From an uncultured Mycoplasma sp. (GTDB lineage: Bacteria; Bacillota_I; Bacilli_A; RF39; UBA660), in contig CAZEAD010000001.1 of assembly GCA_964510115.1 (NCBI GenBank), forward strand, positions 1 through 37,035: DNA of 37,035 nucleotides, written 5' to 3'. The notes under the pieces are model-generated. The model was given only the letters and a program-made list of their open reading frames with translations, did no database searches and was not told the DNA's origin. The translations under genes and the position numbers were made by a program. Every line of letters begins with the position of its first letter. Position 1 is the first letter of the stretch. Positions 12,333 to 35,340 of this stretch are shown here, piece by piece.

Positions 12333-14708
12333 CTAATCATCATCACTATAAATGCTTGATCTGTCCTTAGTTTTAACTTTATCTTTTAATTTATTCAATT
12401 CTTCCTGTTTCAATAACATTTTTAACTTTTCAGGATTATTTGTATCAATACCTTCTTTAATAGCATCAATCAACTCATCCTTTGTCACAACATCATCATA
12501 AGGATCATAAGGAAGTTCAGCCTTAACTTCACCAATAATTTTTGGAGGTTCCTCTTGTTTAGCTATAGGCTTAACATCTTGATTCAAAACTGCATTTGGA
12601 TAAACAATATCATCATCAGTACCATTTTTAGATCCAAAATTAAACTCAGGTTTAAATTCAAACATAGGAGTTGCCGCTTGCTGTGTTCCTTGTGGAACAA
12701 TTGGAAGCTTTCTTCTATGAAGAAGAACAGCACTTGTAGCCACTAAACCAACAGTACCAGCCCCAATTACAGAAGCAGCTATAAACTCACCAACTGTCAT
12801 ACCAAAAATCGTACCACTTTTCTTTTCTACATTTAATTGATAAATACGAGTAAAACCATTTTCATCTGTTACCTTTATTAAAACAGCATTATTACCATTT
12901 TTTAAATTATTATTACCAGTAATTTCAACTTTAGCCTTCTCATTTTCTGGAGTAGCTACAATATCTATACTATCTACATTACTATCAACTTTAATATTAT
13001 AAGTATCAATATCCTTATCAAAACTGGGACTAATATTATGATCTTTAATAGTCAAAGATTTTAAAAGATTATTACTTGCTACCGCATCCTTATTTACATT
13101 CAAAGTATAAATACGAACACTACCATCTTCAGCAGTAACTTTAACTTGAACTGTAGAAACTTCTCCAACCTTAAAATTACCATTCCCTACTACTTCAACT
13201 TTAGCTTTTGAAGAAGAAGCAGCATAATCAATATCTAATAAATCCACTTCATATGGAATTTTAATATTATAATTACTTAAATCTTTATTAAAAGCTGGAT
13301 TTAACTCTACACCCTTTATATTTAAAGATTTAAGATAATTATCACCAGATTTTTTTACTACAGGATCAGTATTTGTCTTTGGAGCCTCTCTTGTAACATT
13401 AATAATATATATATTTTTAGTACCATTTTCTGCTTCTACTAAAACACTTACTTGATTTATTCCATATTCTAAAGACTTATTACCTGTTATTGTAACTTTT
13501 GACTTACTATCAGTTGGAATAGCTTTTACATCAAGAGATGTTACCTTCTCTCCAACAGAAATTGAATAAACATTTGTATTTTTATTAAATCCTGGTTTCA
13601 AAGTTTGTCCAGAAATACTAAGTGATTTCAAAGTAGCATCTCCACTAAGAACTGGAGTTTCTGTTTTTTCCTCTCTAGTAACTTTAATTGTATAAGTTTT
13701 CTTTGAACCATCTTCAGCTGTTACTACTACACTTACTGTATTCTCTCCAACCTTCAAGTTATCTGCTCCAGTAATAGCCACTGTAGCCTTACTATCATTC
13801 TTTATAGCATTTACAATTACCTCAGTAGCAGCATTTGGAACCTTTAAAGTATAATTAGTAACATCCTTATTAAAAGCTGGTGACAATGAATAACCATTTA
13901 CATTCAAACCACTTAACGTATTATCACTTGATTTAGGGACTTCTGTTGCTTGTCTCGTAACTTTAATTGTATAAGTTTTCTTTGAGCCATCCTCAGCTGT
14001 TACTACAACATTAACATTATTAACACCAACATTCAAATTTACATTACCAGTTCCTGTAATAGTAGCCTTTGTATCTTCCTTCGTAGCATTTACTGTAATA
14101 GAAGAAACATCATTTGGAACAGTCAAACTATAACTAGTAGTATTTTTATTAAACGCTGGAGTAATTGTCCTATCAACTACACTCAAACTAGTTAAAAAAG
14201 CATTATTCGATTTTCTTTCACCAATTGTTATTCTACCTTCACTTACAGTTCCAGTTAACTTATTAGGGATTGTATCAGATACCAATAAATTATTAATTGT
14301 TACTGCAGTAGTTCCAATCTTCTTTGTCTTAAAAGTAAAATTCATCAAATTTGTATTTGTCTTTATTCCAGTTCCAGAATAAACCCAAGCAAACTTTTTA
14401 GTTGATTCCATATAAGAAAAATTAATACCATTTGTAGCACTAGTCTGAGATACAAAATCCAAATAATCAGTATCAAATACTATATTTCCTCCAATAGAAG
14501 CAACACCATCTGTATCAGTGGTTGAAATGTTTGAAATCTTCATAGTGAAAACAACATTATCTCCCACTTGAACATTAGTCTTATTAGCAGTAAATCCAAC
14601 TGTAGCAGATCCAGCATTTGCTGCCTTAGCTTGAGGCAGCTGGAACACTAAAAATGAAAGACAAATCATTAATAGTATTCCAACCAAATTTTTACATTTC
14701 TTTTTCAT
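12333..14708 (-). CDS. Membrane-anchored scaffoldin-like surface protein: signal peptide, cohesin-like module, 5 cadherin-like modules, TM helix, cytoplasmic tail
   Basis: Signal peptide MKKKCKNLVGILLMICLSFLVFQLPQAKA. Domain motifs are listed in the sub-features. TM helix FIAASVIGAGTVGLVATSAVLL followed by HRRK (12718-12785). The tail is about 125 aa and acidic/Lys-rich. The ORF-track ATG 14720 contains the SD (ATGGAGGT), so ATG 14708 is preferred. The upstream gene's stop overlaps it (TAATG). Confidence 0.85.
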   Translation of the reverse strand: MKKKCKNLVGILLMICLSFLVFQLPQAKAANAGSATVGFTANKTNVQVGDNVVFTMKISNISTTDTDGVASIGGNIVFDTDYLDFVSQTSATNGINFSYMESTKKFAWVYSGTGIKTNTNLMNFTFKTKKIGTTAVTINNLLVSDTIPNKLTGTVSEGRITIGERKSNNAFLTSLSVVDRTITPAFNKNTTSYSLTVPNDVSSITVNATKEDTKATITGTGNVNLNVGVNNVNVVVTAEDGSKKTYTIKVTRQATEVPKSSDNTLSGLNVNGYSLSPAFNKDVTNYTLKVPNAATEVIVNAIKNDSKATVAITGADNLKVGENTVSVVVTAEDGSKKTYTIKVTREEKTETPVLSGDATLKSLSISGQTLKPGFNKNTNVYSISVGEKVTSLDVKAIPTDSKSKVTITGNKSLEYGINQVSVLVEAENGTKNIYIINVTREAPKTNTDPVVKKSGDNYLKSLNIKGVELNPAFNKDLSNYNIKIPYEVDLLDIDYAASSSKAKVEVVGNGNFKVGEVSTVQVKVTAEDGSVRIYTLNVNKDAVASNNLLKSLTIKDHNISPSFDKDIDTYNIKVDSNVDSIDIVATPENEKAKVEITGNNNLKNGNNAVLIKVTDENGFTRIYQLNVEKKSGTIFGMTVGEFIAASVIGAGTVGLVATSAVLLHRRKLPIVPQGTQQAATPMFEFKPEFNFGSKNGTDDDIVYPNAVLNQDVKPIAKQEEPPKIIGEVKAELPYDPYDDVVTKDELIDAIKEGIDTNNPEKLKMLLKQEELNKLKDKVKTKDRSSIYSDDD
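12822..14211 (-). repeat. Array of 5 cadherin-like beta-sandwich modules (about 88 aa each)
   Basis: Recurrent pattern L.SL.v.g..LsPaFnkd...Y.l.Vp..v..i.v.A...d.kA.v.itG...L..G.N.v.v.VtAedGs.ktYti.VtR. The VVVTAEDGSKKTYTIKVTR coding stretch recurs almost identically at about 13681 and 13961. Confidence 0.85.
14212..14609 (-). other. Cohesin-like module of the 795-aa protein
   Basis: SATVGFTANKTNVQVGDNVVFTMKISNI..GVASIGGNIVFDTDYLDFVSQ..MNFTFKTKKIGTTAVTI follows the cohesin pattern (v.v....v..Gd.v.v.v......g....i.yD...l.fv...f.fk....G...i). Confidence 0.55.
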
Positions 14709-14719
14709 ATAAACCTCCA

Positions 14720-17700
14720 TTAATCTATTAAAGCCTTACCAATAAAATGATTAGTTACTTTAACAGCATCTAACAAATCAATAGCATCATCGTCAATTAC
14801 ATTTCCAGCAATTCTATATGCCCCAGTCAAAGATGATTTACCAATAAAATCATTAGTTATTTTAACAGCGTCTAATAAATCAATTTCTCCATCACCAGTT
14901 GTATCACCTAAAACAATAATAACTTTTTGATCTTTAATTTCACCATTGATAATTAATTTTACAATCATTCCAGTTCCTATATTTGAATCAGTAACTACTG
15001 TAGTATCTGTACTATCATAGATAACCAAATATGCATTTTCATTATCAATATTATCTTTAAAGTCATCAATTGAAGTCAGAGATTTAACACCTAAAATATT
15101 ATCAGTAGTTACATTATATACTGAAGAAGTAATTTTCTGATCAGTCGGATCTTGCTCTCTCGTAATAACTAAAGTATAAACCTTTTCTGTACCATTTTCA
15201 CTAGTTACTTTAATCTTCAACTCATTTGCCCCAGCTTTTAAATCACTATAAGTATATGTATCTGTTTCTGTTAAGCTAGTCAAATCTTTACCAATCTCTA
15301 GTTTTGAAGCTTGATCTTCTTTACTAGCAGTAACTATAACAGATGTAATACCAGATGCCACAGTTGCGGTATAATTTTCTGTTTCTTTATTAAATGTCGG
15401 AGTCAATGTTCCTTCACTTATTTCAAGGTTTCCTAAATAATTATTATCAGATTTTCTACGAATATTAATTACATAAGTCGTCTTTGTAACATTATCTTGT
15501 GCTGTTACAACAACCTCAAATCTATTATCACCAACTTGTAATGTTTTAGTACCAGTTCCAGTTACAGTCGTGTTCTCCTCACCCGTAGCACTAATTACAA
15601 TTGAATCTTTTATATTAGAAACAGCATCTAAAGTATAACTAGTTTTAGAAGTTACAAATCCTGGAACCAAAACTCCATCTACTTCCAAACTTGCCAATCC
15701 AGAATTACTATTCATTGCTCTTATAATTGTTAACTTATAAATAGTTTTTTCATTATTCTCAGCAGTAACTTTTATTTCAAATTCATTTGAACCATATTCT
15801 AAAGTCACATCTCCAACACCCTCAATTACACTACTTGCATAAGGACTATTAGCAACTGCACTTATATTAACACTAGTAACATCACTTGTAACATGAACCT
15901 CATATTCTTTATGATCAGGAGCAAACACTGGAGAAAGAGTATAATCTGATCCATCTTTAGAAACTGTAAGAGCTGATAATGTACCATCATCATCCAATAC
16001 CTGTTCAAAATCAATAACATAAGTTTTAAGATTACCATCTTCTGGAGTTATCGTAATTGTAGCTTGTGAATCAGTTCCAATTGTATAATCACCAGTTCCA
16101 GTTATTCCTATTGCATCATTTGAAGTAGCAGCTACATGAATCGTTGTTACAGTTCGATCATATTTATATACATAACTATTTGTATTAGGATTAAACTCAG
16201 GAGTTAAAACACCTTGCGGATCACTAGTTACTTCCAAAGTAGCTAAATTTGCATCACTTAACAAACGACGAACTTTTAAAGTATAAACTTTAGTAACTGA
16301 ACCATCTTGAGAAGTTACTGTAAGAGTTATGTTGTTTTCTAAACCTTCTACTAAGAAATCAGCACCACTTACAACAACATCAGCCTCATCATGACTCTTA
16401 GTATAAGTAATAGCTAAACTTGAAATAGCACTACCAACAGGATCCAATGTATAAGTTATTGTATCCTTATTAAAATCAGTAACTGATACTCCACCAACTT
16501 TAATATCCAATAAATCAGCATCTGAACTCAATTCTCTTTTAATATTAACAGTATATGTTTTCGTAGAATCATCTTCAGCTGTAACTACAATCTTCACCTC
16601 ATTATTTCCAAATGCAAGAGATTTATTTCCAATTCCAGTAACACTTTTAACATTTTCACTACTAGCAGTAGCCTTAATCTCTACCTGATCAATATCATTT
16701 GGAACGCTTACTGTATATGTATCAACATTAGGACTAAACCTTGGATCAAGCGTATAAACATTATCACCATTTTCAACACTTAAACTTGCTAAAGTAACAT
16801 CAGAAGAAGTTTCCCTTTCAAATGTTACAGTATAAGTATCTTCACTTTCATCTTCAGCCACTACTTTAATTGTTGCAACTGTATCAACTCCTACTGTATA
16901 CTCTCCTATTCCTTCAATTCTAATTACCTTAGAATCAGCTGCAGTGGCATTAACATTTATTTTCTCAACACTTTCATCATAAATATAACGATAACTCTTT
17001 TTATTACCACTAAAAGTCGGAGTCAAAACACCTTGTGGATCACTAGTAACAATAAGTTCTGATAAAGTAGTATTATTTGATTTTCTATAAACATTTAAAG
17101 TATATGTTTCTTTAGTTGTTCCATCTTGAGCAGTAACCTCAACTAATATAGAATTATTTCCAAACTTCAAATTACTATTTCCTGTTACAGTATAAGTAGC
17201 ATGTGGATAACTAGTATGAGCTGTAATATTTAAAGAAGTTATACTTCCTGAAACTGGATCCAATGTATATGTATCAGTTCCACTTGTAAAACCTGCAATA
17301 GCAGTACCATTTACATCAATACCAGTTAAAGTTGCATCAGTATTAAGCTCTCTTACAACTCTAATATTATAAGTTTTTGTCTTATTATCCTCAGCTGTTA
17401 CTACTAATTCAAAATCATTATTTCCAAAATCAAGTGTTTTATTTCCAGTTCCAGTAACACCTTTAGCATTCGCACTACCAGCTGTTGCTTTTATCTCAAC
17501 ACTATCTATATTATTTGGAACACTAACTGTATAACTATCTTCAGTAGGACTAAAACTTGGATTAAGTGTATAAACAGTTCCACTATTTTCAACACTCAAA
17601 CTTCCTAAACTTGTATCTGAAGATTTCTTTCTTTCAAAATTAATTGTATAAGAATTAGTTGTACCATCCTCAGCTGTTACTGTAATAACAGCATTTGTAT

Positions 17701-20251
17701 CAACACCAATTGTATATTCCTTAAAACCAGTAACACTCTTTACATTAGCATTTGTTGTCGTACCATTAATATCTATTTTCGTTACCTTCTCATCATAAGT
17801 ATATGTATAAGTTCTAGTACCACTTGAGAAATTAGGACTCAATACACCTTGCGGATCACTTGTTACATTAAGTTCTGACAAAGTTGTATCATTTGATTGT
17901 CTATAGACATTTAAAGTATATGTTTCTTTAGTTGTTCCATCTTGAGCAGTAACCTCAACTAATATAGAATTATTTCCAAACTTCAAATTACTATTTCCTG
18001 TTACAGTATAAGTAGCATGTGGATAACTAGTATGAGCTGTAATATTTAAAGAAGTTATACTTCCTGAAACTGGATCCAATGTATATGTATCAGTTCCACT
18101 TGTAAAACCTGCAATAGCAGTACCATTTACATCAATACCAGTTAAAGTTGCATCAGTATTAAGCTCTCTTACAACTCTAATATTATAAGTTTTTGTCTTA
18201 TTATCCTCAGCTGTTACTACTAATTCAAAATCATTATTTCCAAAATCAAGTGTTTTATTTCCAGTTCCAGTAACACCTTTAGCATTCGCACTACCAGCTG
18301 TTGCTTTTATCTCAACACTATCTATATTATTTGGAACACTAACTGTATAACTATCTTCAGTAGGACTAAAACTTGGATTAAGTGTATAAACAGTTCCACT
18401 ATTTTCAACACTCAAACTTCCTAAACTTGTATCTGAAGATTTCTTTCTTTCAAAATTAATTGTATAAGAATTAGTTGTACCATCCTCAGCTGTTACTGTA
18501 ATAACAGCATTTGTATCAACACCAATTGTATATTCCTTAAAACCAGTAACACTCTTTACATTAGCATTTGTTGTCGTACCATTAATATCTATTTTCGTTA
18601 CCTTCTCATCATAAGTATATGTATAAGTTCTAGTACCACTTGAGAAATTAGGACTCAATACACCTTGTGGATCACTTGTTACATTAAGTGCTGATAAAGT
18701 TGTATCATTTGATTGTCTGTAAACATTTAAAGTATATGTACCCTTAGATACACCATCTTCTGCTGTTACCACTACAGTAATTGCATTATCTCCAACTTTT
18801 AAATTATTATTACCATTAACTACATATGTAGCATATTGAAAACTAGGAGTAGCAGTAACGTTTAAAGAAGTTACACTATTAACAACTGGAGCTAAAGTAT
18901 AAGTATCAGTACCACTCGTAAAACCATTAACTGTTACATTATTTACTTTTAAATCCGATAAAGTTGTATCTGTACTTGGATTTGATCTTGTTATTTCAAG
19001 TTCATAAGTATTTGAACTACAAACATTTCCCGGAACATCTTTATATAAAACATTACAATCTTCTGCATCTACAATAACACTTTTTTTATGCAAACCAGCT
19101 GTTGCAAAATTAAAATTTCCTGTTCCCTCTCTTATCGTCCCAGGTGAAACAGCAGTTGCGCTTACCAAAGTACTAGTAGTTCTATATGGAACAGTAGCAG
19201 TATATTTATAAGAACTATCAGAAAAATTTGGAGTCAATGTAATACCTGATAAAGAAAGAGCAGAAAGAGAAGCAACATTTGACAATCTCTTAATAACAAT
19301 TGTATAAATTTCTGCCGACCCATCTGCAGCAGTTACAGTAATAGAAAAACTATTATCTCCAACTACCAAATTTTTATTTCCAAGTTCACCAGGTAAAATA
19401 GAAGCACCAGAATCATGACCAACAGCTTGTAAATCAATACTAGATATTGCATTAGGAACAACAGTATTATAATTTGTAGTTGTACTGCCAGCAACAAAAG
19501 TAGGATTTAAAATATAAGATGTTTCCCCATTTTTAACAGTCAAACTTGCAAGAGTATTATCACTTGAAACCTCACCATATACTTCATATGAAACTGGAGT
19601 ACTAGTCATACTAGAAGCATTACCATCTTGATCAGTCTTAGAATTTCTTTCATCATCAAAAGTAAATTCAATCTTAGACTGTGGAGTTGCATCATCTTTT
19701 ACTTTAAAGAAATAAAAGAACATAACTCCTCCAGGATTAGTTAAAAGTGACCTAGATGCACTTTCATCCCCCAAAGTTACATTAATTAAATTTTTCCCAT
19801 CTTTAAAAAGTGGCATCTCATTAGCATCAGAAATTGTCCAACGAACACGAGTAGCAGCACTACCAGTTCCTGGGAATACTCCACCATTCTTCTCTGCTCT
19901 GTTATCAAACTCTAACATAATAAGATCTTCATCTTTCACTAACTCTAAAGCATTAGGATCATAATACATACCAATTTGTATTATCATAGCATCAGCCGGA
20001 TCCCCTACTTTATACTTAACACCCGCAGCTACATAACTACCAGGGTTAATAGCAGCACCATCACTAATTTTTACAGCATCGCCATCTTGATATGACATCA
20101 AAAAATCAGCAGTATCTAATCCATCAAATTCATATAATTCAACAGATATATCATAAGGAGAAGCTGCATTTACATCAAAAAATGGAACAAACATAAAAAT
20201 AGCGATAAGCAACAAAACAAAAATATTTCTTATTTTAAAACTGTACTTCAT
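14720..20251 (-). CDS. Giant secreted adaptor-like protein: signal peptide, cohesin-like module, 16 cadherin-like modules, X-like module, type-I-like dockerin
   Basis: The ORF is 1849 aa from ATG 20269. The internal ATG 20251 (MKYSFKIRNIFVLLLIAIFMFVPFFDVNA) fits the upstream extended -10 and the GGAAG RBS better. The C-terminus has two Ca-binding dockerin segments. Stop is TAA at 14720-14722. Confidence 0.85.
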   Translation of the reverse strand: MKYSFKIRNIFVLLLIAIFMFVPFFDVNAASPYDISVELYEFDGLDTADFLMSYQDGDAVKISDGAAINPGSYVAAGVKYKVGDPADAMIIQIGMYYDPNALELVKDEDLIMLEFDNRAEKNGGVFPGTGSAATRVRWTISDANEMPLFKDGKNLINVTLGDESASRSLLTNPGGVMFFYFFKVKDDATPQSKIEFTFDDERNSKTDQDGNASSMTSTPVSYEVYGEVSSDNTLASLTVKNGETSYILNPTFVAGSTTTNYNTVVPNAISSIDLQAVGHDSGASILPGELGNKNLVVGDNSFSITVTAADGSAEIYTIVIKRLSNVASLSALSLSGITLTPNFSDSSYKYTATVPYRTTSTLVSATAVSPGTIREGTGNFNFATAGLHKKSVIVDAEDCNVLYKDVPGNVCSSNTYELEITRSNPSTDTTLSDLKVNNVTVNGFTSGTDTYTLAPVVNSVTSLNVTATPSFQYATYVVNGNNNLKVGDNAITVVVTAEDGVSKGTYTLNVYRQSNDTTLSALNVTSDPQGVLSPNFSSGTRTYTYTYDEKVTKIDINGTTTNANVKSVTGFKEYTIGVDTNAVITVTAEDGTTNSYTINFERKKSSDTSLGSLSVENSGTVYTLNPSFSPTEDSYTVSVPNNIDSVEIKATAGSANAKGVTGTGNKTLDFGNNDFELVVTAEDNKTKTYNIRVVRELNTDATLTGIDVNGTAIAGFTSGTDTYTLDPVSGSITSLNITAHTSYPHATYTVTGNSNLKFGNNSILVEVTAQDGTTKETYTLNVYRQSNDTTLSELNVTSDPQGVLSPNFSSGTRTYTYTYDEKVTKIDINGTTTNANVKSVTGFKEYTIGVDTNAVITVTAEDGTTNSYTINFERKKSSDTSLGSLSVENSGTVYTLNPSFSPTEDSYTVSVPNNIDSVEIKATAGSANAKGVTGTGNKTLDFGNNDFELVVTAEDNKTKTYNIRVVRELNTDATLTGIDVNGTAIAGFTSGTDTYTLDPVSGSITSLNITAHTSYPHATYTVTGNSNLKFGNNSILVEVTAQDGTTKETYTLNVYRKSNNTTLSELIVTSDPQGVLTPTFSGNKKSYRYIYDESVEKINVNATAADSKVIRIEGIGEYTVGVDTVATIKVVAEDESEDTYTVTFERETSSDVTLASLSVENGDNVYTLDPRFSPNVDTYTVSVPNDIDQVEIKATASSENVKSVTGIGNKSLAFGNNEVKIVVTAEDDSTKTYTVNIKRELSSDADLLDIKVGGVSVTDFNKDTITYTLDPVGSAISSLAITYTKSHDEADVVVSGADFLVEGLENNITLTVTSQDGSVTKVYTLKVRRLLSDANLATLEVTSDPQGVLTPEFNPNTNSYVYKYDRTVTTIHVAATSNDAIGITGTGDYTIGTDSQATITITPEDGNLKTYVIDFEQVLDDDGTLSALTVSKDGSDYTLSPVFAPDHKEYEVHVTSDVTSVNISAVANSPYASSVIEGVGDVTLEYGSNEFEIKVTAENNEKTIYKLTIIRAMNSNSGLASLEVDGVLVPGFVTSKTSYTLDAVSNIKDSIVISATGEENTTVTGTGTKTLQVGDNRFEVVVTAQDNVTKTTYVINIRRKSDNNYLGNLEISEGTLTPTFNKETENYTATVASGITSVIVTASKEDQASKLEIGKDLTSLTETDTYTYSDLKAGANELKIKVTSENGTEKVYTLVITREQDPTDQKITSSVYNVTTDNILGVKSLTSIDDFKDNIDNENAYLVIYDSTDTTVVTDSNIGTGMIVKLIINGEIKDQKVIIVLGDTTGDGEIDLLDAVKITNDFIGKSSLTGAYRIAGNVIDDDAIDLLDAVKVTNHFIGKALID
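14723..14908 (-). other. Dockerin (two 22-residue segments) of the 1849-aa protein
   Basis: DTTGDGEIDLLDAVKITNDFIG and NVIDDDAIDLLDAVKVTNHFIG. These are EF-hand-like D.[ND].D..ID loops followed by helices. Confidence 0.75.
14909..15136 (-). other. X-like module immediately preceding the dockerin
   Basis: YNVTTDNILGVKSLTSIDDFKDNI...LVIYDSTDTTVVTDSNIGTGMIVKLIINGEIKDQKVIIVLGD. The same layout precedes the other two dockerins. Confidence 0.5.
15151..19568 (-). repeat. Array of 16 cadherin-like modules with an internal three-module super-repeat
   Basis: Counted by eye from recurrent L.SL.V...L.P.F.....Y...V......i.a........v.G.g...l..G.N...v.VTAeDg....Yt..v.R units. Modules 4 to 15 form four A-B-C triads. 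Confidence 0.85.
17091..18722 (-). repeat. Near-perfect tandem duplication, 2 x 816 bp (272 codons, three cadherin-like modules per unit)
   Basis: Direct comparison shows 17091-17851 identical to 17907-18667 (761 bp, no mismatch seen). A few mismatches occur in the remaining about 55 bp of each unit (for example 17852 c versus 18668 t). Confidence 0.97.
19569..20161 (-). other. N-terminal cohesin-like module of the 1849-aa protein (tentative)
   Basis: ..IIQIGMYYDPNALELVKDEDL..GGVMFFYFFKVKDDATPQSKIEFTFDDE resembles the cohesin i.YDp..Le.v / f.fkvk....g...i.f pattern. It is longer and more divergent than the other two. Confidence 0.4.
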
Positions 20252-20283
20252 AAAACACTTCCAAATCATCTATTCTTATAATG

Positions 20284-20381: not shown

Positions 20382-20408
20382 AAAAAAAAGAGATACATTA
20401 GTACCTCT
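20382..20408 (-). terminator. Rho-independent terminator after the 3460-aa gene
   Basis: Minus strand reads AGAGGTAC-TAAT-GTATCTCT (8 bp, one G-U) followed by T8. The stem overlaps the TAG stop. Confidence 0.7.
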
Positions 20409-26400: not shown

Positions 26401-29400
26401 ATGAGAAGTTATTTTTATAATATCTCCCTCTTCAATAAATGAATTACCAACTATATCAATTTTTGCTGATTTATAATAAGGAATAGCTATAAAATCAAGC
26501 TCTAGAATATTTTTATTTATAACCAATTCATAATCAGTTTGATCTTCTTTAAAATCTAAATCTATTCCTGGAAGAGATGTTTGAAGAGATTTCAACAAAC
26601 TAGTCTTTTTTCTGTTAATATTTACAGTATAAGTCTGATTCTCAGTAGAATCCTCAGATATTACAAACAAAACCTTAGATAAATTATCTACATCAAAATC
26701 ATAAGTTCCTTCTTGTCTTACTGTTTGTCCTTCATTATGTTTTATTCCTGCAATACTTACTTTATCTAAATAATAAGGAACTTCAACATCATAAACAAAC
26801 TTAGTACTTGAAAAATCTTTTATAGGAACACCATTTACTAAAATACCCTCCAAGAATTTATAATTATTTGCTTCTCTTATAAAAGTTAATTTATATATTT
26901 TAGTATTACCAGCATCATCAGTTAAAGTTATATTATGCTCAGTTGTACCAATCGGTATTGTTAATTTACCAATTCCTGTAATCAAAGCATCTTCATTATT
27001 TGAAGTAGCCTTAATTTCTAAATCAGTATCAATATTATCTAAATTAACTGTATATTCATAAACATCTTCAGCAAAACTTGGAGATATTTCTCCTTTTGAA
27101 GTAGTAAGAGATGTCAAAACAGTATCAACAGAACCTATAAATCGAATCTTAACATAACCATTTTCACTGTTTCCAGTCATATTCTTACTAGCATCAGTAT
27201 AAGTAGGCATGGATTCATTTCCAGCTTTCATTATAATATTAGAAAAAGATTTACCACTATAATGAATACTTTGCCCTGTATGAACTATCTTAGTGCTTAC
27301 AGAACTTTCATCTATAGCATTACAACCACTACAACCTGAAACGAAACTAGAACCACCTGCTCCAGAAGTATTATAAGTTGAAGCAGCGCCACTCGAATTA
27401 GCAAATCCACCATAGTATCCGCCACCACCGCCGCCAACATCAACATTAGAATTCTTAAAAACACCATCCATACCTTTACCAAAAGCATATCCAGTTGTTT
27501 GAGTACCACCTTTTGAATATTTCGTATTTTGACCACTCAAAGTTCCACCATATCCACCAGCAAGGCCATAAGCAGAACCACCACCACCAGCCGCAACCAT
27601 AATTCTTGATTTTAAAGAGTCAAAATTATCCCAATCTCCGCCTACTAAACGAATATCAGAAGCTCCTCCGCCTGCAGCAGCAGCCTCATCATCACTATGA
27701 TCATAATCTCCACGACCACCACCATTATAGCCACCAGGAACAATCGTTGAAGCCTTAGCATCACTTCCACGACCACCTACATTAATATAAAGAATAGTTC
27801 CTTCTTCTAAATAAATATCTCCTTTTGTATAAGCACCTTTTCCACCAGCATAATTAGCAGAAGCAAGATCAGAAGTATTCTTTCCACCAGCAGCACCCCA
27901 AGCTTCTAATCTATAATATCCAGTTTTATTAACAATATACTCTTCAGTATGGCCAGTATAAGCAAAATCTACATTACTTTTAGCATATTCACGATAAACA
28001 TTAAATACATACTCATTAGTATTCCCATTATCATCTGAAATTGCTATCGTAAAACTATTATCTCCTACTCTTAAATTTAAAGAACCATTAACAGTATAAG
28101 TAATATTATCTTCTTTCAAAATTTCTGGTGTTAATTTTTTAACATTATTTGGAACCTTCAAATCATAAGACATAACATTTGGAGAATAGTTAAACTTAAC
28201 TTCTTTAAATGCAATTTCTGATAAAGTAGGCTTTTCAATAGTTGGAATAATATTATAAACACTAAGAGAGCCATCTTCATTCATCAAAACAATATAATGA
28301 GTTTCTCCTTCTTTTAAGGTTACTTCTCCATCACCTATAATTGTAACAGCCTTATCTGTTGTTACTTTTATATTTGTCGAAAAATTATCATTAGGAATTA
28401 AAACATGATATGTAAGTATGCTATCACTAACAGGTTCAACAACTTTAGCTCCTTCAACATCTAAATCAATAATAGCTGGTAAAGCTTCAATTAACGTTAT
28501 TCTAGCATGACCATTACTATCATTACCAGTCATAGTTGTTCCTGGAGTTTGGAAACTAGGCATTGAAACATTTCCGGCTAGCATAACAATGTCTGTAAAA
28601 GATTTGCCACTATAATGTATACTTTGACCTGTATGAACTATATTAGTACTTACAGAACTTTTATCTATAGCATCACAACCACTGCAACCAGAAACGAAAC
28701 TAGATCCACCTGCACCAGCAGTGCCATAAGCTGAAGCAGCACCACTTGAATTAGCATAACCACCATAGTAGCCACCACCAGCGCCACCAACATCAACATT
28801 AGAATCTTTATAAATTCCATCCATTCCTTTTCCAAAAGCATACCCAGTTGTTTGAGTTCCACCTTTTGAATATTTAGTATCCTGTCCAGCTAAAGCACCA
28901 CCATAGCCTCCACTAAGGCCATCAGAAGCACCACCGCCACCACTAGCAACCATAATTCTTGATTTCAAGGAATTGAAATTATCCCAATCACCGCTAATTA
29001 AACGAATGTCAGTAGCTCCTCCTCCTGCTCCAGCAGCTTCATCATCACCATGATCCCAATCACCACGACCTCCGCCATTATAGCCACCAGGAACAATTGT
29101 CGAAGGTTTTGCATTAGTTCCTTTACCACCAACATATATATAAAGAACTTCATCCTTTTTTAAGTAAATTCTACCTTTTGTATAAGCACCTTTTCCACCA
29201 TAATAAGTTACTCTAGTGCCAGAAACAATATTATTACCACCACCAGCACCCCAAGCTTCTATCTCATAGTATCCAGTTCTTGGTACTTTAAAAGTTTGAT
29301 AATTTCCAGAATAATTAAAGTCCTCAACCTCTGTCACATCATTATCTTTATATTCTTCGCGAATAACTTTTATTTTATATTCAGCATCATCACAATTTTC

Positions 29401-30789
29401 ATCAAAAACACGAATCGTTATTAAGTTTTCTCCAACTTCCAAATCCAAATCCCCAACTATTTCATAAGTAGTAGATGCATCTTTTTTAATAAAAGGAGCT
29501 AAACTTTTTACATTATATGGAACAGTTCCAGAATACTCATAAACAAATGGTTTAAAATCCAATTTTAAATAATCAAAATCAAGTGAATTAAAATGAGCTT
29601 TTTGAGTTTCCATATATACAGTATAAATCAAAACATCACCAGATTGAGTTGTCAAAGTAATATCAAAACTATTTCCTGAAACCAAAGCAATATTTTCATA
29701 TCCAGTAACACTAACAGGAGTACCATAAAATTCTAAATCAAATGTTCCTGTACTAGCATGATTTTTTTTCAAATAAGCAATATATTCAAAATGATTATAA
29801 TCATTAGCTCTAAAAACCATTTGGTCTTCTAAACTAATATTAGCAATAGCTTCTCCACCAGATATCTTAGTAATTCTTGCATAACCATTTCCTGCATTAC
29901 CAGTCATATTACCACTACCAGTAGTATTTGGCATTGAAGCATTACCAGCAATCATTTGCGTATCTTTAAAAACAAAATTACTATAGTGAATATTTTGTCC
30001 TGTATGTACAATATTATCACTTGTTGATTCTAAAGCTATAGCATCGCATCCACTATGTCCAGAAATAAAACTAGATCCACCAGCACCAGCAGATGTCCAA
30101 GTATTATAAGGAGAAGAATTAGCAAATCCACCATAGTATCCGCTACCACCACCAGCAACATCAACATTAGAATTTACATAAACACCATCCATACCTTTAC
30201 CAAAAGCATATCCGGTTGTTTGAGTACCACCTTTCGAATAAGTTACATCGCCACCAGTTAAAGCGCCACCATTTCCTCCATTCAAATTATAAGTAGCTCC
30301 TCCGCCACCACCAGCAACCATTACTCTAGCTTTTAATGATTTAAAATCATCCCATTTTCCACCTACAATACGAATATCAGTAGCTCCTCCGCCACCTCCT
30401 GATGCTTCATCATCAGTATGGTCATGTTCTCCACGACCACCGCCATTATAACCACCAGGAACAATTGTAGATTTTTTAGCATCAGTTCCTTTACCACCGA
30501 CATAAATATACAATTTCTGCCCTTTATGTAAAAAAGTAACACCACTTGTATAAGCACCTTTACCAGGTGTCATTGATCCAGAAGAAGAACCATCTCTTAA
30601 ATTCTTTCCGCCGCCAGCACCCCAAGCCTCTACTTTATAATAACCATCACTAGGCACAACAAATTCCTGAACAGATCCTGTATAATTAAAAGAATATTGC
30701 GATCCAGCAGCATTAACATCCAAAAAAGAAGCTAAAAAAACAACTAAAACACTAATAATATAAACAAATAAAAAACGTCTACTGCGCAT
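20407..30789 (-). CDS. Giant (3460 aa) secreted protein: signal peptide, four ALK/LTK-like glycine-rich modules interleaved with cadherin-like modules (24 in total), X-like module, dockerin
   Basis: Single uninterrupted ORF with signal peptide [27 protein letters not shown]. Modules are detailed in the sub-features. The C-terminus reads [22 protein letters not shown]...[21 protein letters not shown]. Confidence 0.9.
   Translation of the reverse strand: [3460 protein letters not shown]
20410..20598 (-). other. Dockerin of the 3460-aa protein
   Basis: [22 protein letters not shown] and [22 protein letters not shown], two near-symmetric Ca-loop plus helix segments. Confidence 0.8.
20599..20845 (-). 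other. X-like module preceding the dockerin
   Basis: [75 protein letters not shown]. Confidence 0.5.
20849..25443 (-). repeat. Array of 17 divergent cadherin-like modules
   Basis: Each is about 88-100 aa and ends in ..Y.l.v.R/K[DEQ]. Examples are [50 protein letters not shown] and [27 protein letters not shown]. Confidence 0.85.
25444..26334 (-). other. Glycine-rich module 4 (most divergent)
   Basis: [107 protein letters not shown]. Confidence 0.7.
27130..27972 (-). other. Glycine-rich module 3
   Basis: [137 protein letters not shown]. Confidence 0.75.
28480..29322 (-). other. Glycine-rich module 2
   Basis: [125 protein letters not shown]. Confidence 0.75.
29854..30696 (-). other. Glycine-rich module 1
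   Basis: [128 protein letters not shown]. Confidence 0.75.
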
Positions 30790-30842: not shown

Positions 30843-30895
30843 TATTCTTTATCAATTTAAAATTCTTTTTTGAATTTTTTATACAAAATTTAATA

Positions 30896-30925
30896 TAAAA
30901 AAAGTAACCTAAATATAAGATTACT
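30896..30925 (-). terminator. Intrinsic terminator after the 137-aa gene
   Basis: Minus strand reads AGTAATC-(9-nt loop)-GGTTACT (7 bp, one G-U) followed by T7-8. Confidence 0.6.
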
Positions 30926-30938
30926 AAATTTATAAAAT

Positions 30939-31352
30939 TTATTCTTTATCAAATCCACAACTAAGTTCTACTTTAATATCATAATCAGTCTTCCCATATT
31001 TTTCTTTTGGATAAATAATAGCACGTGTTGACATAGTATCACATTTTTCATTTGTCTTTCTATTTACAAACTCTTCTATCTTAGCTTGATTTTCTTTACT
31101 ATTATATCTACTTAAACCATCAAGAGTAACTTTAATTCCGATAGTTTTAAAAGGTTTAAGAAACTTTTCACGATCCTCTAAAGTTTCACCAGTTTGATCA
31201 TAATAATAATCCTCATAAAAATCTCTACCCATCTCTTTTAAACTTCTCTCTAGTTTCTTTTCTTGAGTATTATTTAAAATTAAAAACAAAGCCACGCCTA
31301 AAACTGCAACCACACCCACAACTATTAAAATTAAAACATTCTTCTTTTTCAT
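30939..31352 (-). CDS. 137-aa membrane-anchored protein of unknown function
   Basis: AAGGAG RBS 7 nt upstream. N-terminal anchor MKKKNVLILIVVGVVAVLGVALFLIL. The extracytoplasmic domain has two Cys residues. Confidence 0.65.
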   Translation of the reverse strand: MKKKNVLILIVVGVVAVLGVALFLILNNTQEKKLERSLKEMGRDFYEDYYYDQTGETLEDREKFLKPFKTIGIKVTLDGLSRYNSKENQAKIEEFVNRKTNEKCDTMSTRAIIYPKEKYGKTDYDIKVELSCGFDKE

Positions 31353-31427
31353 ATTTACTCCTTTATTTTTCTTATATTATCAATTACTATTCAATCATAA
31401 CATACTTTTACAATTTTTGCACTATCA

Positions 31428-31457
31428 ATTTAAAAATTAATAATTTAAAAATTAATA
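31428..31457. repeat. Perfect 15-bp tandem direct repeat in the divergent intergenic region
   Basis: ATTTAAAAATTAATA occurs twice back to back (31428-31442 and 31443-31457). Confidence 0.9.
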
Positions 31458-31545
31458 ATCTTAATCTATTATAATAAAGTAATTGTAAACCATCGACAAA
31501 AAACAATCTTTTTTTCATAAGCAAATATACTTATTAAGATATATC

Positions 31546-31554
31546 TGTTATAAT
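31546..31554 (+). promoter_or_regulatory. Extended -10 element (TGTTATAAT) upstream of the autolysin gene
   Basis: TGT-TATAAT at 31546-31554. GGAGG at 31570-31574 follows. Confidence 0.4.
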
Positions 31555-31582
31555 AAAAATATAAACAATGGAGGTATGCAGT

Positions 31583-33790
31583 TTGAAAAAAATTACTAAT
31601 ATATTATTAATCATTGCAATTATATGCAATTATTTTATTTTACCAATCACAGTTAACGCTGCAACAATAACAGCAACAATCATCGATCCTGATGGAGTAA
31701 ACGTAAGAAATGGTCCTGGTACTAACAATACAAAAATAGGTGTTCTAGCTTTTAAAAAACAAATTACCTTAGTATCCACTACCAAGCATAAAGGAACAGG
31801 TTGTTCAAAAGGTTGGTATCAAATAAACTATAATGGTTCAACCAAAGCTTATGTATGTAGTGAACTAGTAACAATCAACAATGAAAACACTACAACTAAT
31901 AACAAAACATATTACACTACTAGCGAATGGGGAACAAGAATAAATGAAGATTATGCCAACGTTAGAAAATCAACCAGCATGTCTGCAACAGCCCTAGACA
32001 AATTATTTCTAGGAACAAAAGTAAATATCTTAGAAACAATTAACACCTCAACAAGTGGTTGTAGTGAAGGTTGGTATAAAATATCTTATTATAACAATAA
32101 AACAGGTTATGTATGTAAAAGATTAATAGACAAATACGAAGATGTCACAGCAAGTGATAAAGACTATGAAAAACAACTTAAAACACTAGGTTTCCCAGAT
32201 AGTTATATCCCCTTCTTAGTTTACCTACATAAAAAACATCCTAATTGGAACTTTAAACCAGATTTAACTAAAAAAGACTTTGCAACTGCAGTAAACAAAG
32301 AAACTGGAAAAAACTATATTCAAACTAATATAGATATTTATAGAACATCAAACACAGCAGTAGAATCAGGAACCTGGTACATTGCTTCAAGCCCAGTTGT
32401 AGCAATATTCCTTGATCCTAGAAACTATTTAAATGAAAAAAATATTTGGGTTTATGAAGATTTAACTTATGATGAAAAAGCAACAACCTATCATGATACT
32501 GTAAAAAGTATATTTGCCAATACTTATCTTGATACTGAAGAATATATCGGATACTTTTTAGAAGGCGGTAAAGAATCCATGGTATCACCAGTTCATTTAG
32601 CAGCACGCGTAAAACAAGAAGGAGGAACAAACGAAAAATATGATGGCGTAAGTGGAAAATCAACTTTAAAATACGATGGAAAAGCCCTTACAAATGCCTA
32701 TAACTATTACAATATTGGAGCTTATGAAGATTCCAAAACAAAAAGTGCTGTAGCAAGAGGACTAGCAGTAGCTAAAGGATATGTAGATAATTACTATGGA
32801 ACTCCATGGGACACTAGAGAAAAAGCAATCAAATATGGAGCCAAATTCATTGGAGACAAATATGTTTCAAAAAAGCAAAACACTCTATACTATCAAAAAT
32901 TCAATACTGCTAATAATTCATACTATGCCCCATATACCAATCAATATATGACAAACGTTATGGCCCCAGCTAGTGAATCATTATCAATTAACAGTACTAA
33001 AAAAAATAATAATATTGCTGATTTAACATATACATTTGCTATTCCAGTTTATGACAATACCCCACAAAGTTATTTAACCTACCCTCCACTTGGAGACACA
33101 ATAAACGATTTAACAAGCATTAAAGTAAATAACACAACAGTAAATGGTTTTGATAGTGACGTCTTAGAATATACACACTACATTAGTTATGATACAACTG
33201 AAGTATCTCTAACAGCAGATAAAAAATCAGCTAAAAGTACTGTAAAAGGTACAGGCACAATAAAAACACCAAATGCAAATACAAAAGTTCAAATTATAGT
33301 AACAAGCGAAGTTTTAGAAACAAAAACCTATACAATTACTTTAATAAAAGAAGATAAACCAGCCGAAGATACTTTAACAGCTGAAGAAATAATTAATAAA
33401 TTAGATGTAAAATTAAGTAATAATTATTTAACAGGTATTTCCTCAGGAACTTTACCTGCAACACTTGCTAACGATATCAATAAAATATCACCTTCAGCAA
33501 AAGTTACAATAACTGATAAAAATAAAGTTAAAAAAACAAGCAAATTAGCAACCGGAGACATCATAACCATAAATAATACAAGTTATACAATCTCAATCAA
33601 AGGAGATCTAAATGGTGATGGTACAATAAACTCTGCAGATTTCTCAAGAATTCAAAAACATATTTTAAAATATAGCACCCTAAAAAATGAATACAAAGCC
33701 GCCGCTGATGTCAACTACGATGGAAATATCAATTCCGCAGATTTCTCAAGAATTCAAAAACATATTTTAAAATATATAAAATTAAAATAA
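31583..33790 (+). CDS. Secreted peptidoglycan hydrolase: 2 x SH3b, GH73-type N-acetylglucosaminidase, cadherin-like module, X-like module, dockerin
   Basis: SH3b modules: GVNVRNGPGTNNTKIGVL..CSKGWYQINYNGSTKAYVCSELV and YANVRKSTSMSA..CSEGWYKISYYNNKTGYVCKRLI. GH73-like core: VSPVHLAARVKQEGG...YNYYNIGAYED...TPWDTREKAIKYGAKFIGDKYV..QNTLYYQKFN. The ORF-track ATG 31568 contains the SD (ATGGAGGT). TTG 31583, 8 nt after GGAGG, gives a canonical signal peptide (M)KKITNILLIIAI..PITVNA. Confidence 0.85.
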   Translation: MKKITNILLIIAIICNYFILPITVNAATITATIIDPDGVNVRNGPGTNNTKIGVLAFKKQITLVSTTKHKGTGCSKGWYQINYNGSTKAYVCSELVTINNENTTTNNKTYYTTSEWGTRINEDYANVRKSTSMSATALDKLFLGTKVNILETINTSTSGCSEGWYKISYYNNKTGYVCKRLIDKYEDVTASDKDYEKQLKTLGFPDSYIPFLVYLHKKHPNWNFKPDLTKKDFATAVNKETGKNYIQTNIDIYRTSNTAVESGTWYIASSPVVAIFLDPRNYLNEKNIWVYEDLTYDEKATTYHDTVKSIFANTYLDTEEYIGYFLEGGKESMVSPVHLAARVKQEGGTNEKYDGVSGKSTLKYDGKALTNAYNYYNIGAYEDSKTKSAVARGLAVAKGYVDNYYGTPWDTREKAIKYGAKFIGDKYVSKKQNTLYYQKFNTANNSYYAPYTNQYMTNVMAPASESLSINSTKKNNNIADLTYTFAIPVYDNTPQSYLTYPPLGDTINDLTSIKVNNTTVNGFDSDVLEYTHYISYDTTEVSLTADKKSAKSTVKGTGTIKTPNANTKVQIIVTSEVLETKTYTITLIKEDKPAEDTLTAEEIINKLDVKLSNNYLTGISSGTLPATLANDINKISPSAKVTITDKNKVKKTSKLATGDIITINNTSYTISIKGDLNGDGTINSADFSRIQKHILKYSTLKNEYKAAADVNYDGNINSADFSRIQKHILKYIKLK
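33602..33787 (+). other. Dockerin of the autolysin
   Basis: DLNGDGTINSADFSRIQKHILK and DVNYDGNINSADFSRIQKHILK. The SADFSRIQKHILKY coding stretch (gcagatttctcaagaattcaaaaacatattttaaaatat) is duplicated verbatim at about 33636 and 33738. Confidence 0.8.
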
Positions 33791-33804
33791 AAAGGAGTAA
33801 AAAA

Positions 33805-35340
33805 ATGAAAAAAAAATATTTATTAAATTTATTATTTCTACTTAGTCTTTTCTTAATTCCAAATATTAATGTTCAAGCTGCAACTGGTAAAATCGACCTA
33901 TATGTCTCAAGCAAAAACGTTACCATTGGAAGCTCAGTAACAGTAAGTGTCTATTGTGAAAGTTCTGTAACAATAGGAACCTGTGAATATACTATTGATT
34001 ATGATTCTAAAAAACTAAAACTTACTTCTGTCTCAGATCAAGCAAGCTGTAATCCAAGTGGTTATTGTATGTATGCAGTAGGAAGTAAAAAAAGCTCAGC
34101 AAAAAAATTCACATTCAAAGTTTTAACAACTGGAACTCACAAAGTAAGTGCCAAATCCGCAACTATGTATGAACTAAATCATAGCGAAGAAGATGTTTTA
34201 ATAAAAACAAGTGTTGATCCAACAACATTCACAAGTACAACAGCATCATCAACAAACTCAAGTGGCAATAATTCTTCTAGTAATTCCAGCCAAACAACCT
34301 ACTCTACTAATAATAATTTAAAAAACCTAACAGTAGACAATGTTCCCCTATCTCCTAAGTTTAATAAAAACACAACAGAATACAAAGCCACTATCGATTC
34401 TAATATAAGCTCTATAAAAATAAACGCTACCAAAGAAGATAATAAAGCAAAGATAAAAGGAACTGGAACGTTCCCAGTAACATACGGTGATAATAAATTT
34501 CCTATTGTAGTTACTTCCGAAAAAGGAACAACAAAAACTTACAATATTACAATAACAGTTGAAGATAAAAATCCAATACCAATAACAATCAATGAAAAAA
34601 ACTATAATATTATAAAATCTGCAAGTATCTTAACCAAACCAAATAATTACACTGAAACAAAAGTAACCATAAATGATCAAGAAATTCCCGCTTTCTATAA
34701 CGAATTGCTAGATTATACAATAATCGGTATAAAAGATGTTTCAGGAAAAATAAATTATGCAATCTACGAACAACCAAATACCTATCGTTTATATAAAGAA
34801 ATACAATTTGATGCTACAACCTTAGAAATAGATGAAACAAAAACCTTATCAGGATATAATAAAATAGATCTAGAAATAAATGATAACAACATTCACGCTT
34901 ATCAAAAAGATGAATCATCACACTATGCTTTCTTCTATGGAACAAACCTTGCAACAGGAAAATCTGGTTGGTATAGTTATGATAAAGAAGAAAATACTAT
35001 TCAAAAAAACTATGAAGATGATTTATCACTACAAGATACAAAAATAGAACAAGCCAAAAAAATAATCATTACATTAGTACTAGCATGTATCTTATTAGTC
35101 ATAATTTTAATAATCGTTTCAATTATGAAAATGAAAAACAATCATCAAAAAACCAAAGAACAACAAAAACATTATGAAGAATTAAAAGAAAAGAAAAAAA
35201 ATAATAATCCTTCTAATAAAAAACCAGAAAAACAAACAAAAGAACCAAAAGAACTTCTTGAAGAAATTACTAAAAAAGAAAATGAAGAACAACAAAAACT
35301 AAAAAAGAAAAAACCAGAAGATATCTTAGATGAATGGTAA
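33805..35340 (+). CDS. Second membrane-anchored scaffoldin-like protein: signal peptide, cohesin-like module, Ser/Asn linker, one cadherin-like module, unknown module, TM helix, Lys/Glu-rich cytoplasmic tail
   Basis: AAGGAG RBS 8 nt upstream. Signal peptide MKKKYLLNLLFLLSLFLIPNINVQA. Cadherin-like module LKNLTVDNVPLSPKFNKNTTEYKATI..VVTSEKGTTKTYNITITVE. TM helix IIITLVLACILLVIILIIVSIM (about 35063-35128). The tail is about 70 aa and KE-rich. Confidence 0.85.
   Translation: MKKKYLLNLLFLLSLFLIPNINVQAATGKIDLYVSSKNVTIGSSVTVSVYCESSVTIGTCEYTIDYDSKKLKLTSVSDQASCNPSGYCMYAVGSKKSSAKKFTFKVLTTGTHKVSAKSATMYELNHSEEDVLIKTSVDPTTFTSTTASSTNSSGNNSSSNSSQTTYSTNNNLKNLTVDNVPLSPKFNKNTTEYKATIDSNISSIKINATKEDNKAKIKGTGTFPVTYGDNKFPIVVTSEKGTTKTYNITITVEDKNPIPITINEKNYNIIKSASILTKPNNYTETKVTINDQEIPAFYNELLDYTIIGIKDVSGKINYAIYEQPNTYRLYKEIQFDATTLEIDETKTLSGYNKIDLEINDNNIHAYQKDESSHYAFFYGTNLATGKSGWYSYDKEENTIQKNYEDDLSLQDTKIEQAKKIIITLVLACILLVIILIIVSIMKMKNNHQKTKEQQKHYEELKEKKKNNNPSNKKPEKQTKEPKELLEEITKKENEEQQKLKKKKPEDILDEW
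33886..34230 (+). other. Cohesin-like module of the 511-aa protein
   Basis: GKIDLYVSSKNVTIGSSVTVSVYCESSVTIGTCEYTIDYDSKKLKLTSVS..KKFTFKVLTTGTHKVSAKS fits the cohesin pattern. Confidence 0.55.

Follow-up and report, generated by a model that had tools for sequence, protein, structure and literature searches.

Two separate cohesin–dockerin systems, for a candidate membrane-tethered autolysin and a candidate surface fibre, on one contig of an uncultured Mycoplasma sp.

The window analysed here is an entire 37,035-bp contig (CAZEAD010000001.1) of a metagenome-assembled genome (MAG) from an uncultured Mycoplasma sp., and all genome-wide statements below are limited to this one contig. The block at 12333–35340 consists of five open reading frames (ORFs), for proteins of 740, 511, 3460, 1849 and 795 amino acids (aa), and of a gene for a 137-aa membrane protein (p137). 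It holds two independent cohesin–dockerin systems, not one: system A comprises the 740-aa and 511-aa proteins, and system B comprises p137 and the 3460-aa, 1849-aa and 795-aa proteins. On balance, we favour the view that system A is a housekeeping autolysin tethered to the membrane, and system B a hierarchical adhesin composed of anchor, adaptor and fibre, both joined by predicted cohesin–dockerin binding. All five large proteins start with a hydrophobic leader ending in VNA, VQA or AKA, with Ala as the next residue (signal peptides were assigned by visual inspection), and a self-trained jackhmmer profile detects 24, 16, 5, 1 and 1 cadherin-like modules in the 3460-, 1849-, 795-, 740- and 511-aa proteins, respectively; the total of 47 equals the by-eye count in a preliminary description of this DNA, and the Pfam PF12733 matches agree in kind. 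As that description had also proposed, the 511-aa and 795-aa proteins each have a single transmembrane (TM) segment close to the C-terminus, and LPXTG occurs in none of the five proteins. The features of system A are as follows.

31568–33790, plus strand: 740-aa enzyme with signal peptide, two SH3_3 domains, GH73-like domain, cadherin-like module, X region and type I dockerin
31691–32137, plus strand: the two SH3_3 domains (Pfam)
32150–33067, plus strand: GH73-like glucosaminidase domain (structure matches)
33098–33361, plus strand: cadherin-like module of the enzyme (Pfam)
33362–33601, plus strand: X region of the enzyme
33602–33787, plus strand: dockerin of the enzyme (Pfam)
33805–35340, plus strand: 511-aa anchor with signal peptide, cohesin, cadherin-like module, beta-rich domain, TM helix and Lys-rich cytoplasmic tail
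33880–34254, plus strand: cohesin of the anchor (Pfam and structure model)
34303–34575, plus strand: cadherin-like module of the anchor
34576–35010, plus strand: beta-rich domain of the anchor
35062–35130, plus strand: TM helix of the anchor

The dockerin of the 740-aa enzyme scores 61.7 bits against Dockerin_1 (PF00404), for which the Pfam gathering threshold (GA) is 22.9 bits, and aligns end to end with the type I dockerin of Clostridium thermocellum Xyn10B (PDB codes 2ccl/1ohz, 1.5e-12); the Ruminococcus bromii Amy12 and Amy16 dockerins are detectable homologues. Its calcium loops, like those of the 3460-aa protein, fit the pattern D-x-N/D-x-D-G-x-I/V-N/D-x-x-D of two-segment type I dockerins, and the recognition helix INSADFSRIQKHIL, as read from the sequence, is present twice. 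The signal peptide is cleavable-looking, ending in VNA with Ala after the apparent cleavage site, and the SH3_3 domains score 77 bits in Pfam. The central domain is probably a divergent, distant GH73 glucosaminidase with the activity predicted for that family. It matches the GH73 structures of Atl, SagB and AtlE (PDB codes 6fxo, 6fxp, 6u0o and 4pi7) at 1e-6 to 2e-4 with the catalytic Glu aligned, and its best NCBIfam match is glucosaminidase SagB (6e-11). The Glu aligned to the catalytic Glu of GH73, within the family motif (L/Q)E(S/T/G)G, is invariant in 19/19 orthologues; it is residue 351, in an ARVKQEGG motif that starts at residue 346, and the distant orthologue in locus L034 bears PF01832 (Glucosaminidase) itself. 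Upstream of the gene (31353–31567), a ATATACTT...TGTTATAAT stretch is conserved with positions 7612–7785 of the closest related locus, L001, despite unlike upstream genes, and looks like an extended -10 promoter.

The N-terminal module of the 511-aa anchor is a cohesin by Pfam and, as modelled, by fold, in agreement with the preliminary description. Scanned alone it scores 28.3 bits against Cohesin (PF00963, GA 24.1 bits), and 21.1 bits when the full-length protein is scanned. An AlphaFold2 (AF2) model based on 34 homologues has a mean predicted local distance difference test score (pLDDT) of 82.6, and about 90 over residues 30–145. The best Foldseek match of the module is the Clostridium perfringens GH84C cohesin-FN3 construct 2w1n (3e-8), followed by 2jh2, 4ums, 6kgf and 2vo8 with target TM-scores of 0.62–0.65. 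The 511-aa family comprises at least 253 clusters. The cadherin-like module is separated from the TM helix by a conserved and confidently modelled beta-rich domain (residues 258–402, 34576–35010), which has no family match and carries the conserved motifs NPI, IPAFYNE, LVGLKD and WY.YE; it is positioned where a tethered enzyme would meet the membrane.

In 26/26 related loci, a homologue of the 740-aa enzyme is encoded 10–17 nucleotides (nt) upstream of, and on the same strand as, a homologue of the 511-aa anchor, and all the upstream proteins have a two-segment dockerin at the C-terminus; the flanks vary by locus. The 26 loci are made up of four contigs found by protein identity, 20 loci from a genome-collection scan and two more distant relatives. 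The scan covered one genome per species with a pattern built on the closer 11-member set, the 34-member alignment being too diverse. It returned 24 loci, of which L005 repeats L001, and on its own gave 21 loci with the pair, each in a separate species-representative assembly. In the host records, the pair comes from guts of rabbit, Hadza and other origin, under the labels uncultured Bacilli, “Mycoplasma sp.” or “Tenericutes”, and these lineages fall in the reduced-genome Bacilli orders discussed in PMC10868615. Genes of division or the envelope (DivIVA, PBP2, LCP, LtaS or PASTA) lie within 6 kb of the pair in 14/26 loci: DivIVA in eight, PBP2 (a penicillin-binding protein, PBP) in four, an adjoining LCP gene in L004 and L034, and LtaS and PASTA in L034; the LCP-PASTA gene of L004 directly follows the pair. 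When the distance matrices of 21 operons are compared, the dockerin–cohesin pair gives the highest partial correlation of all domain pairs once divergence of the GH73 domain is controlled for, with a partial r of 0.56 (partial Mantel p = 2e-4) and ≤ 0.46 for the other pairs.

System B is encoded on the opposite strand, with the following features.

30939–31352, minus strand: p137 (137 aa), small and N-terminally membrane-anchored, first gene of the minus-strand giant operon
20407–30789, minus strand: 3460-aa predicted distal protein with signal peptide, four ALK_LTK_GRD domains interleaved with 24 cadherin-like modules, X region and dockerin
29860–30708, 28486–29334, 27133–27984 and 25447–26349, minus strand: the four ALK_LTK_GRD domains (PF12810)
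20599–20835, minus strand: X region of the 3460-aa protein
20410–20598, minus strand: dockerin of the 3460-aa protein (PF00404)
14720–20269, minus strand: 1849-aa predicted adaptor with signal peptide, divergent cohesin, 16 cadherin-like modules, X region and divergent dockerin
19571–20164, minus strand: probable cohesin of the adaptor (orthologue-supported)
15146–19567, minus strand: cadherin-like modules of the adaptor
14909–15145, minus strand: X region of the adaptor
14723–14908, minus strand: probable, divergent dockerin of the adaptor (orthologue-supported)
12333–14720, minus strand: 795-aa predicted membrane anchor with signal peptide, cohesin, five cadherin-like modules, TM helix and conserved cytoplasmic tail of ~125 aa
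14211–14621, minus strand: cohesin of the 795-aa protein (profile of relatives)
12810–14210, minus strand: cadherin-like modules of the 795-aa protein
12717–12809, minus strand: TM helix of the 795-aa protein
12336–12716, minus strand: cytoplasmic tail of the 795-aa protein

The 3460-aa protein is the glycine-rich giant that had been described: PF12810 matches in four full-length stretches (E 8.6e-192, above GA), and the C-terminal dockerin scores 36.8 bits against PF00404, above GA. The dockerin helices INVGDKAMINNHIL and VNVGDKAILNNYIL read as an internal duplication. A phmmer search with the glycine-rich domain gave no sequence match to any solved structure in the PDB, and we found no literature on bacterial PF12810 members. 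Within 25400–30700, a unit of ~1353 nt that encodes one glycine-rich domain and two cadherin-like modules is repeated three times with 77–90% identity, and the giant therefore grew by cassette duplication. A homologue of p137 (6e-40; positions 795–1241 of L026) lies directly upstream of a >4256-aa giant with ALK_LTK_GRD and cadherin-like domains in L026, and p137 may serve the giant specifically as an accessory factor. Homology between p137 and the 141-aa gene that takes its place in L001 was considered and rejected, the two sequences being unrelated.

At both ends of the 1849-aa protein, module identity leans on relatives. A word-index search with the N-terminal module found no close relatives and a first metagenome scan with it returned no orthologues; these were located through gene neighbourhood and a profile-based metagenome scan (L031–L033). 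Two of three orthologues, at 31–32% identity, score 26.8 and 32.7 bits against PF00963, above GA, and the third 14.1 bits. A three-sequence profile of the module has only cohesins as its top eight PDB matches (best 0.0032), with ScaB cohesins on top, and hhalign gives a probability of 47% against the profile of the 795-aa type. The module, tentatively called a cohesin in the preliminary description, is thus a probable cohesin. At the C-terminus, BLASTP aligns the last 145 residues with both the X region plus dockerin of the giant (E 4e-12) and the 740-aa enzyme's dockerin (E 1e-6), and two orthologues have dockerins of 29.3 and 24.0 bits, above GA. The first calcium loop is DTTGDGEIDLLD, and the helices IDLLDAVKITNDFI and IDLLDAVKVTNHFI again read as an internal duplication. 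A tandem duplication at 17030–18660 is 100% identical between copies of an 816-nt unit that encodes three cadherin-like modules, with an older third copy at 70–75%. The exact duplication reflects a very recent expansion or else an ambiguity of the assembly, and the adaptor may therefore have a different number of modules in reality.

The 795-aa protein follows directly, its start codon overlapping the stop codon of the 1849-aa protein by 1 nt. Alone, its N-terminal module has no match to PF00963, the best PDB match is a cohesin at E 0.035, and a word-index homologue search returned nothing. An exhaustive search of representative sequences gave 86 relatives, nearly all located N-terminally in signal-peptide proteins, before cadherin-like repeats. 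A 27-member profile of these relatives matches solved cohesins at 1.2e-8 to 1e-7, including 5g5d (1.2e-8) and, over the full length, NagJ (about 5e-8). Of the 27 members, 21 match PF00963 themselves (best 4.6e-12). Because the match comes through a profile of relatives, the module is a cohesin by transitive homology, and the cohesin claimed earlier holds in that form although not by a direct Pfam match. The cytoplasmic tail has no Pfam or NCBIfam match. It is conserved in the L029 and L030 orthologues as FKPEFNFG..NGTDDD...TKDEL..A..E......KL+MLLKQ+E, which hints at a role beyond passive anchoring.

The two systems part company when related loci are compared. In the closest relative, L001 (61% identity), the gene order is LCP, VCA0040, PBP2, tRNA-Cys, a 733-aa and 484-aa pair of the 740/511 type, and isoleucyl-tRNA synthetase (IleRS). 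System B is absent from this syntenic tRNA-Cys site, where a lone unrelated 141-aa gene takes the place of 21.4 kb in the window; the system B trio is thus accessory at this site. In none of the 26 loci with the 740/511 pair are the giant genes found within ±6–10 kb of it. Conversely, the trio occurs without the pair in the available sequence of L029–L033 (≤8–10 kb of flank; two of four contigs are 8.6–16.5 kb). The order of giant (X region and dockerin), adaptor (cohesin, X region and dockerin) and cohesin-TM protein recurs in L029 and L033, and the adaptor–anchor pair recurs in L030 and L031. These loci encode, respectively, a giant with X region and dockerin, a 1573-aa adaptor, an 803-aa cohesin-TM protein and an extra cohesin-TM gene (L029); an 1858-aa adaptor and then an 807-aa anchor (L030); a 2594-aa adaptor and then an anchor (L031); and giant, adaptor and anchor in turn (L033). 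Orthologues of the 795-aa protein always come after an adaptor gene, and a dockerin gene adjoins a cohesin gene in 4/4 system B loci. Because the order giant, adaptor, TM-cohesin recurs, the suggestion that the 1849-aa protein is an adaptor gains strength; the plug-and-socket reading of the preliminary description is likewise supported. The extra gene of L029 (12489–14117) encodes a second protein of the 795-aa type with cohesin, cadherin-like and TM parts, 542 aa long, so that genomes differ in how many anchors they encode.

The preliminary description had taken the five genes as one system, and an integrated, promiscuous display system, in which any dockerin enters any cohesin and the autolysin and the giant are alternative cargoes, could account for the adjacency of all five genes and their common cadherin-like spacers; each dockerin is also internally symmetric, like the dual-binding dockerins of cellulosomes. 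We nevertheless regard it as unlikely, given the separate occurrence of pair and trio. The recognition helices of the dockerins also differ strongly (RIQKHIL, AMINNHIL and AVKITNDFI), the three cohesins, of three distinct types, are mutually almost unalignable and the dockerin–cohesin co-divergence is specific to the 740/511 pair. The dockerins carry three different helix signatures, all repeated internally, and the cohesins barely align, which fits three orthogonal pairs. Since the pair occurs without giants nearby, and L001 lacks them at the syntenic site, the autolysin is not a cargo of the giant's assembly.

For system A, we propose that the type I dockerin of the secreted SH3_3-GH73 glucosaminidase would bind the cohesin on the single-pass 511-aa protein, in an interaction expected to depend on Ca2+, and that the enzyme's domain predicted to cut peptidoglycan would thereby be kept close to the outside of the membrane of the cell that makes it. 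The enzyme would then serve as a housekeeping autolysin in wall remodelling or daughter-cell separation. The host, a gut member of class Bacilli with a reduced genome, makes peptidoglycan, as indicated by the PBP, LCP and other wall genes in the left flank of the window. It might instead be argued that the enzyme is displayed on the surface as a bacteriolytic weapon for attacking neighbouring bacteria, since dockerin-lysozyme fusions of rumen metagenomes have been read as weapons (PMC6487960), and SH3_3 wall-targeting domains are common in lysins. A weapon of this kind is, in our estimate, unlikely, and slightly less probable than a single promiscuous system: the pair is chromosomal, single-copy per locus and kept in all 21 genome-collection loci, it often lies beside DivIVA, PBP or LCP genes, and the anchor has a short ectodomain as modelled (cohesin, one cadherin-like module and one beta domain), which would place the enzyme within a Gram-positive wall and not beyond it.

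For system B, gene order and module content suggest a chain in which the cohesin of the 795-aa membrane anchor would receive the dockerin of the 1849-aa adaptor, and the N-terminal cohesin of the adaptor would in turn receive the dockerin of the 3460-aa protein. The result would be a non-covalent fibre, membrane–795–1849–3460, with about 45 cadherin-like modules and four glycine-rich heads, roughly 180–200 nm long if extended (at about 4 nm per module). From the architecture, the glycine-rich heads would most likely be used for adhesion.

Several observations weigh against this proposal for systems A and B. Taken alone, the N-terminal module of the 1849-aa protein reaches only 16.1 bits (E 0.014) against PF00963, below GA, and its single-sequence AF2 model has a pLDDT of 32. 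The C-terminus, scanned as a 66-aa fragment, reaches 17.2 bits (E 0.0058) against PF00404, likewise below GA, and the second calcium loop NVIDDDAIDLLD is degenerate and lacks the canonical ligand at position 3; of the three dockerins noted earlier, those of the 740-aa and 3460-aa proteins are clear and this one is a probable, divergent dockerin by its homology to the giant and its orthologues. In the Pfam scan, PF01832 does not match the central domain of the 740-aa enzyme, so that the GH73 hydrolase of the preliminary description is a probable one, by structure matches, the SagB family and the invariant Glu. Division genes are near the pair in about half of the loci only. The co-divergence of dockerin and cohesin is suggestive only, because a common phylogeny inflates both the mirror-tree and the partial Mantel statistics. 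In system B, the pairing is deduced from gene order and parsimony in about four independent examples, and further dockerin proteins, encoded outside this contig, may compete for the same cohesins.

A further alternative is that the modules do not pair at all, the dockerins being Ca2+-binding stabilisers or binding another ligand, and the cohesin-like modules generic beta-sandwich spacers. Two of the three cohesins and one dockerin falling under the Pfam thresholds when scanned alone would agree with this, and many non-cellulosomal dockerins are not known to have a partner. Such an arrangement would hardly explain why a dockerin gene is strictly beside a cohesin gene in every locus of either system, why the two modules co-diverge in system A, and why the cohesin is always membrane-distal and N-terminal and the dockerin at the extreme C-terminus, as in known scaffoldin–enzyme pairs; we consider it improbable, slightly more so than the weapon. 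An ordinary cellulosome or amylosome with its enzymes encoded elsewhere is very improbable: the view is limited to one 37-kb contig and the 740-aa dockerin is most like a cellulosomal dockerin of C. thermocellum, but no plant-polysaccharide glycoside hydrolase (GH), carbohydrate-binding module (CBM) or multi-cohesin scaffoldin was seen in the window, where the preliminary description had also noted none of the degrading enzymes, or in >30 related loci, each cohesin protein has a single cohesin, and the hosts are reduced-genome MAG lineages with minimal metabolism (PMC10868615).

A wider reading, to which we give only tentative credence, is that reduced-genome, wall-bearing gut Bacilli use cohesin–dockerin modules as envelope hardware, with an obligatory tether for their main GH73 autolysin and a three-polypeptide adhesosome fibre of ~200 nm. 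The tether would set where and how deep peptidoglycan is cut, as an extracellular, modular analogue of SagB-SpdC, the fibre would have heads of polyglycine type, and the conserved cytoplasmic tail of its anchor could couple it to the cell interior.

As for the remainder of the window, the GC content is about 30%. The left flank encodes, in order, a DivIVA fragment, RecU, a class A PBP, an LCP-PASTA protein, a VCA0040-like translocase and a class B PBP, followed by the tRNA gene listed here; the right end is a truncated IleRS gene.

9829–9902, plus strand: tRNA-Cys (ARAGORN and Rfam), left edge of the variable ~21.4-kb segment bearing system B

A tRNA-linked mobile island was considered for system B. 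As neither an integrase nor an att repeat was seen in the segment bounded by tRNA-Cys, it is termed a variable segment only. The ~2.4 kb that follow the tRNA gene (window region 9829–12333) are very AT-rich, with about 22% GC, and contain two orphan ORFs, one of 132 aa and one for a 173-aa Cys-rich protein (11684–12205, minus strand) with CxxCxGxG zinc-finger-like motifs and no signal peptide. The class A PBP (1347–4169) has a C-terminal extension of ~270 aa with a weak beta-sheet-domain match, and the LCP (LytR-CpsA-Psr) protein (4264–6321) has a C-terminal PASTA domain. Six-frame translation of the window revealed no additional dockerins. Promoter scans of this AT-rich DNA gave 30 hits against 27.3 ± 5.5 and 31 against 22.3 ± 4.5 in shuffled controls, within ~2 standard deviations, and were not used; the few terminator-like sites lie within genes or in the 9.9–12.1 kb region and mark no operon boundary. 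Exact translations from the ORF starts are present in the protein collection for the 511-aa and 3460-aa proteins and p137, and absent for the 795-, 1849- and 740-aa proteins; later start codons were probably chosen in the deposited annotation, as with MKKKCK in place of MEVYMKKKCK.

Use of cohesin–dockerin pairs outside cellulose degradation is already established, so the novelty claimed in the preliminary description is narrowed: no description of the autolysin/TM-cohesin operon or of the three-protein cadherin-like fibre was found in the full-text papers searched on cohesin–dockerin systems. A survey that noted dockerin-lysozyme fusions in rumen metagenomes detected no Tenericutes-assigned cohesins or dockerins (PMC6487960). 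If binding is confirmed, system A would be a natural instance, conserved throughout an uncultured gut lineage, of a cell placing its own peptidoglycan hydrolase by cohesin–dockerin binding, and system B a surface fibre assembled non-covalently from separate stalk proteins, extending the biology of these modules beyond nutrient-degrading complexes. For cell-wall biologists this would mean a new and genetically simple mode of autolysin control, and for protein engineering three apparently orthogonal cohesin–dockerin pairs; more than 250 “cadherin-like domain-containing” hypothetical proteins of human and animal gut metagenomes would acquire a function.

The C. perfringens cohesins of NagJ (GH84C) and NanJ (PDB codes 2w1n, 2jh2, 2ozn and 2vo8), which are among the best profile and fold matches for the N-terminal modules of the 795-aa and 511-aa proteins, provide a precedent in a Firmicute for pairing outside plant-polysaccharide degradation. 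There, secreted glycosidases and toxins are joined to one another, whereas here the cohesins are on single-pass membrane proteins and the predicted partners are a peptidoglycan hydrolase and a giant cadherin-like/glycine-rich protein. The cellulosome scaffoldins of C. thermocellum and Acetivibrio cellulolyticus (ScaA/ScaB/ScaC) share with system B the hierarchy of anchor, adaptor and distal dockerin, and the X-like region before the dockerin. Unlike in cellulosomes, no plant-polysaccharide enzymes or CBM are seen here, cohesins are single and not in arrays, a TM helix replaces S-layer homology (SLH) or sortase anchoring, and the spacers are cadherin-like. The amylosome of R. bromii also belongs to a gut Firmicute and puts cohesin–dockerin pairs to a non-cellulose function, but its cargo is GH13 amylases for nutrient acquisition, and not directed at the cell's own wall or at adhesion (PMC5814915).

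For system A, a probable functional counterpart is Staphylococcus aureus SagB-SpdC (PDB codes 6u0o and 6fxp), in which a GH73 glucosaminidase is held at the membrane through a membrane protein. This complex works on nascent peptidoglycan at the membrane (bioRxiv 10.1101/2020.05.21.109470), and SagB is the closest named family of the 740-aa enzyme. With 42 bits against a cut-off of 425, the enzyme is not a SagB orthologue, and the resemblance would be one of function and not of orthology. SagB has its own TM helix and a polytopic partner in the bilayer, whereas in system A the predicted tether is an extracellular cohesin–dockerin pair and the partner is a single-pass protein. System B invites comparison with giant beta-sandwich adhesins, such as RTX adhesins and cadherin-like stalk proteins, in which long tandem arrays of ~90-aa modules project ligand-binding heads from the cell (PMC7493085); Foldseek matches of the 511-aa model also include 6xi1 and cadherins. 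Those adhesins are single polypeptides anchored by their own terminus, whereas the system B fibre would be composed of three polypeptides held together non-covalently by two predicted cohesin–dockerin joints.

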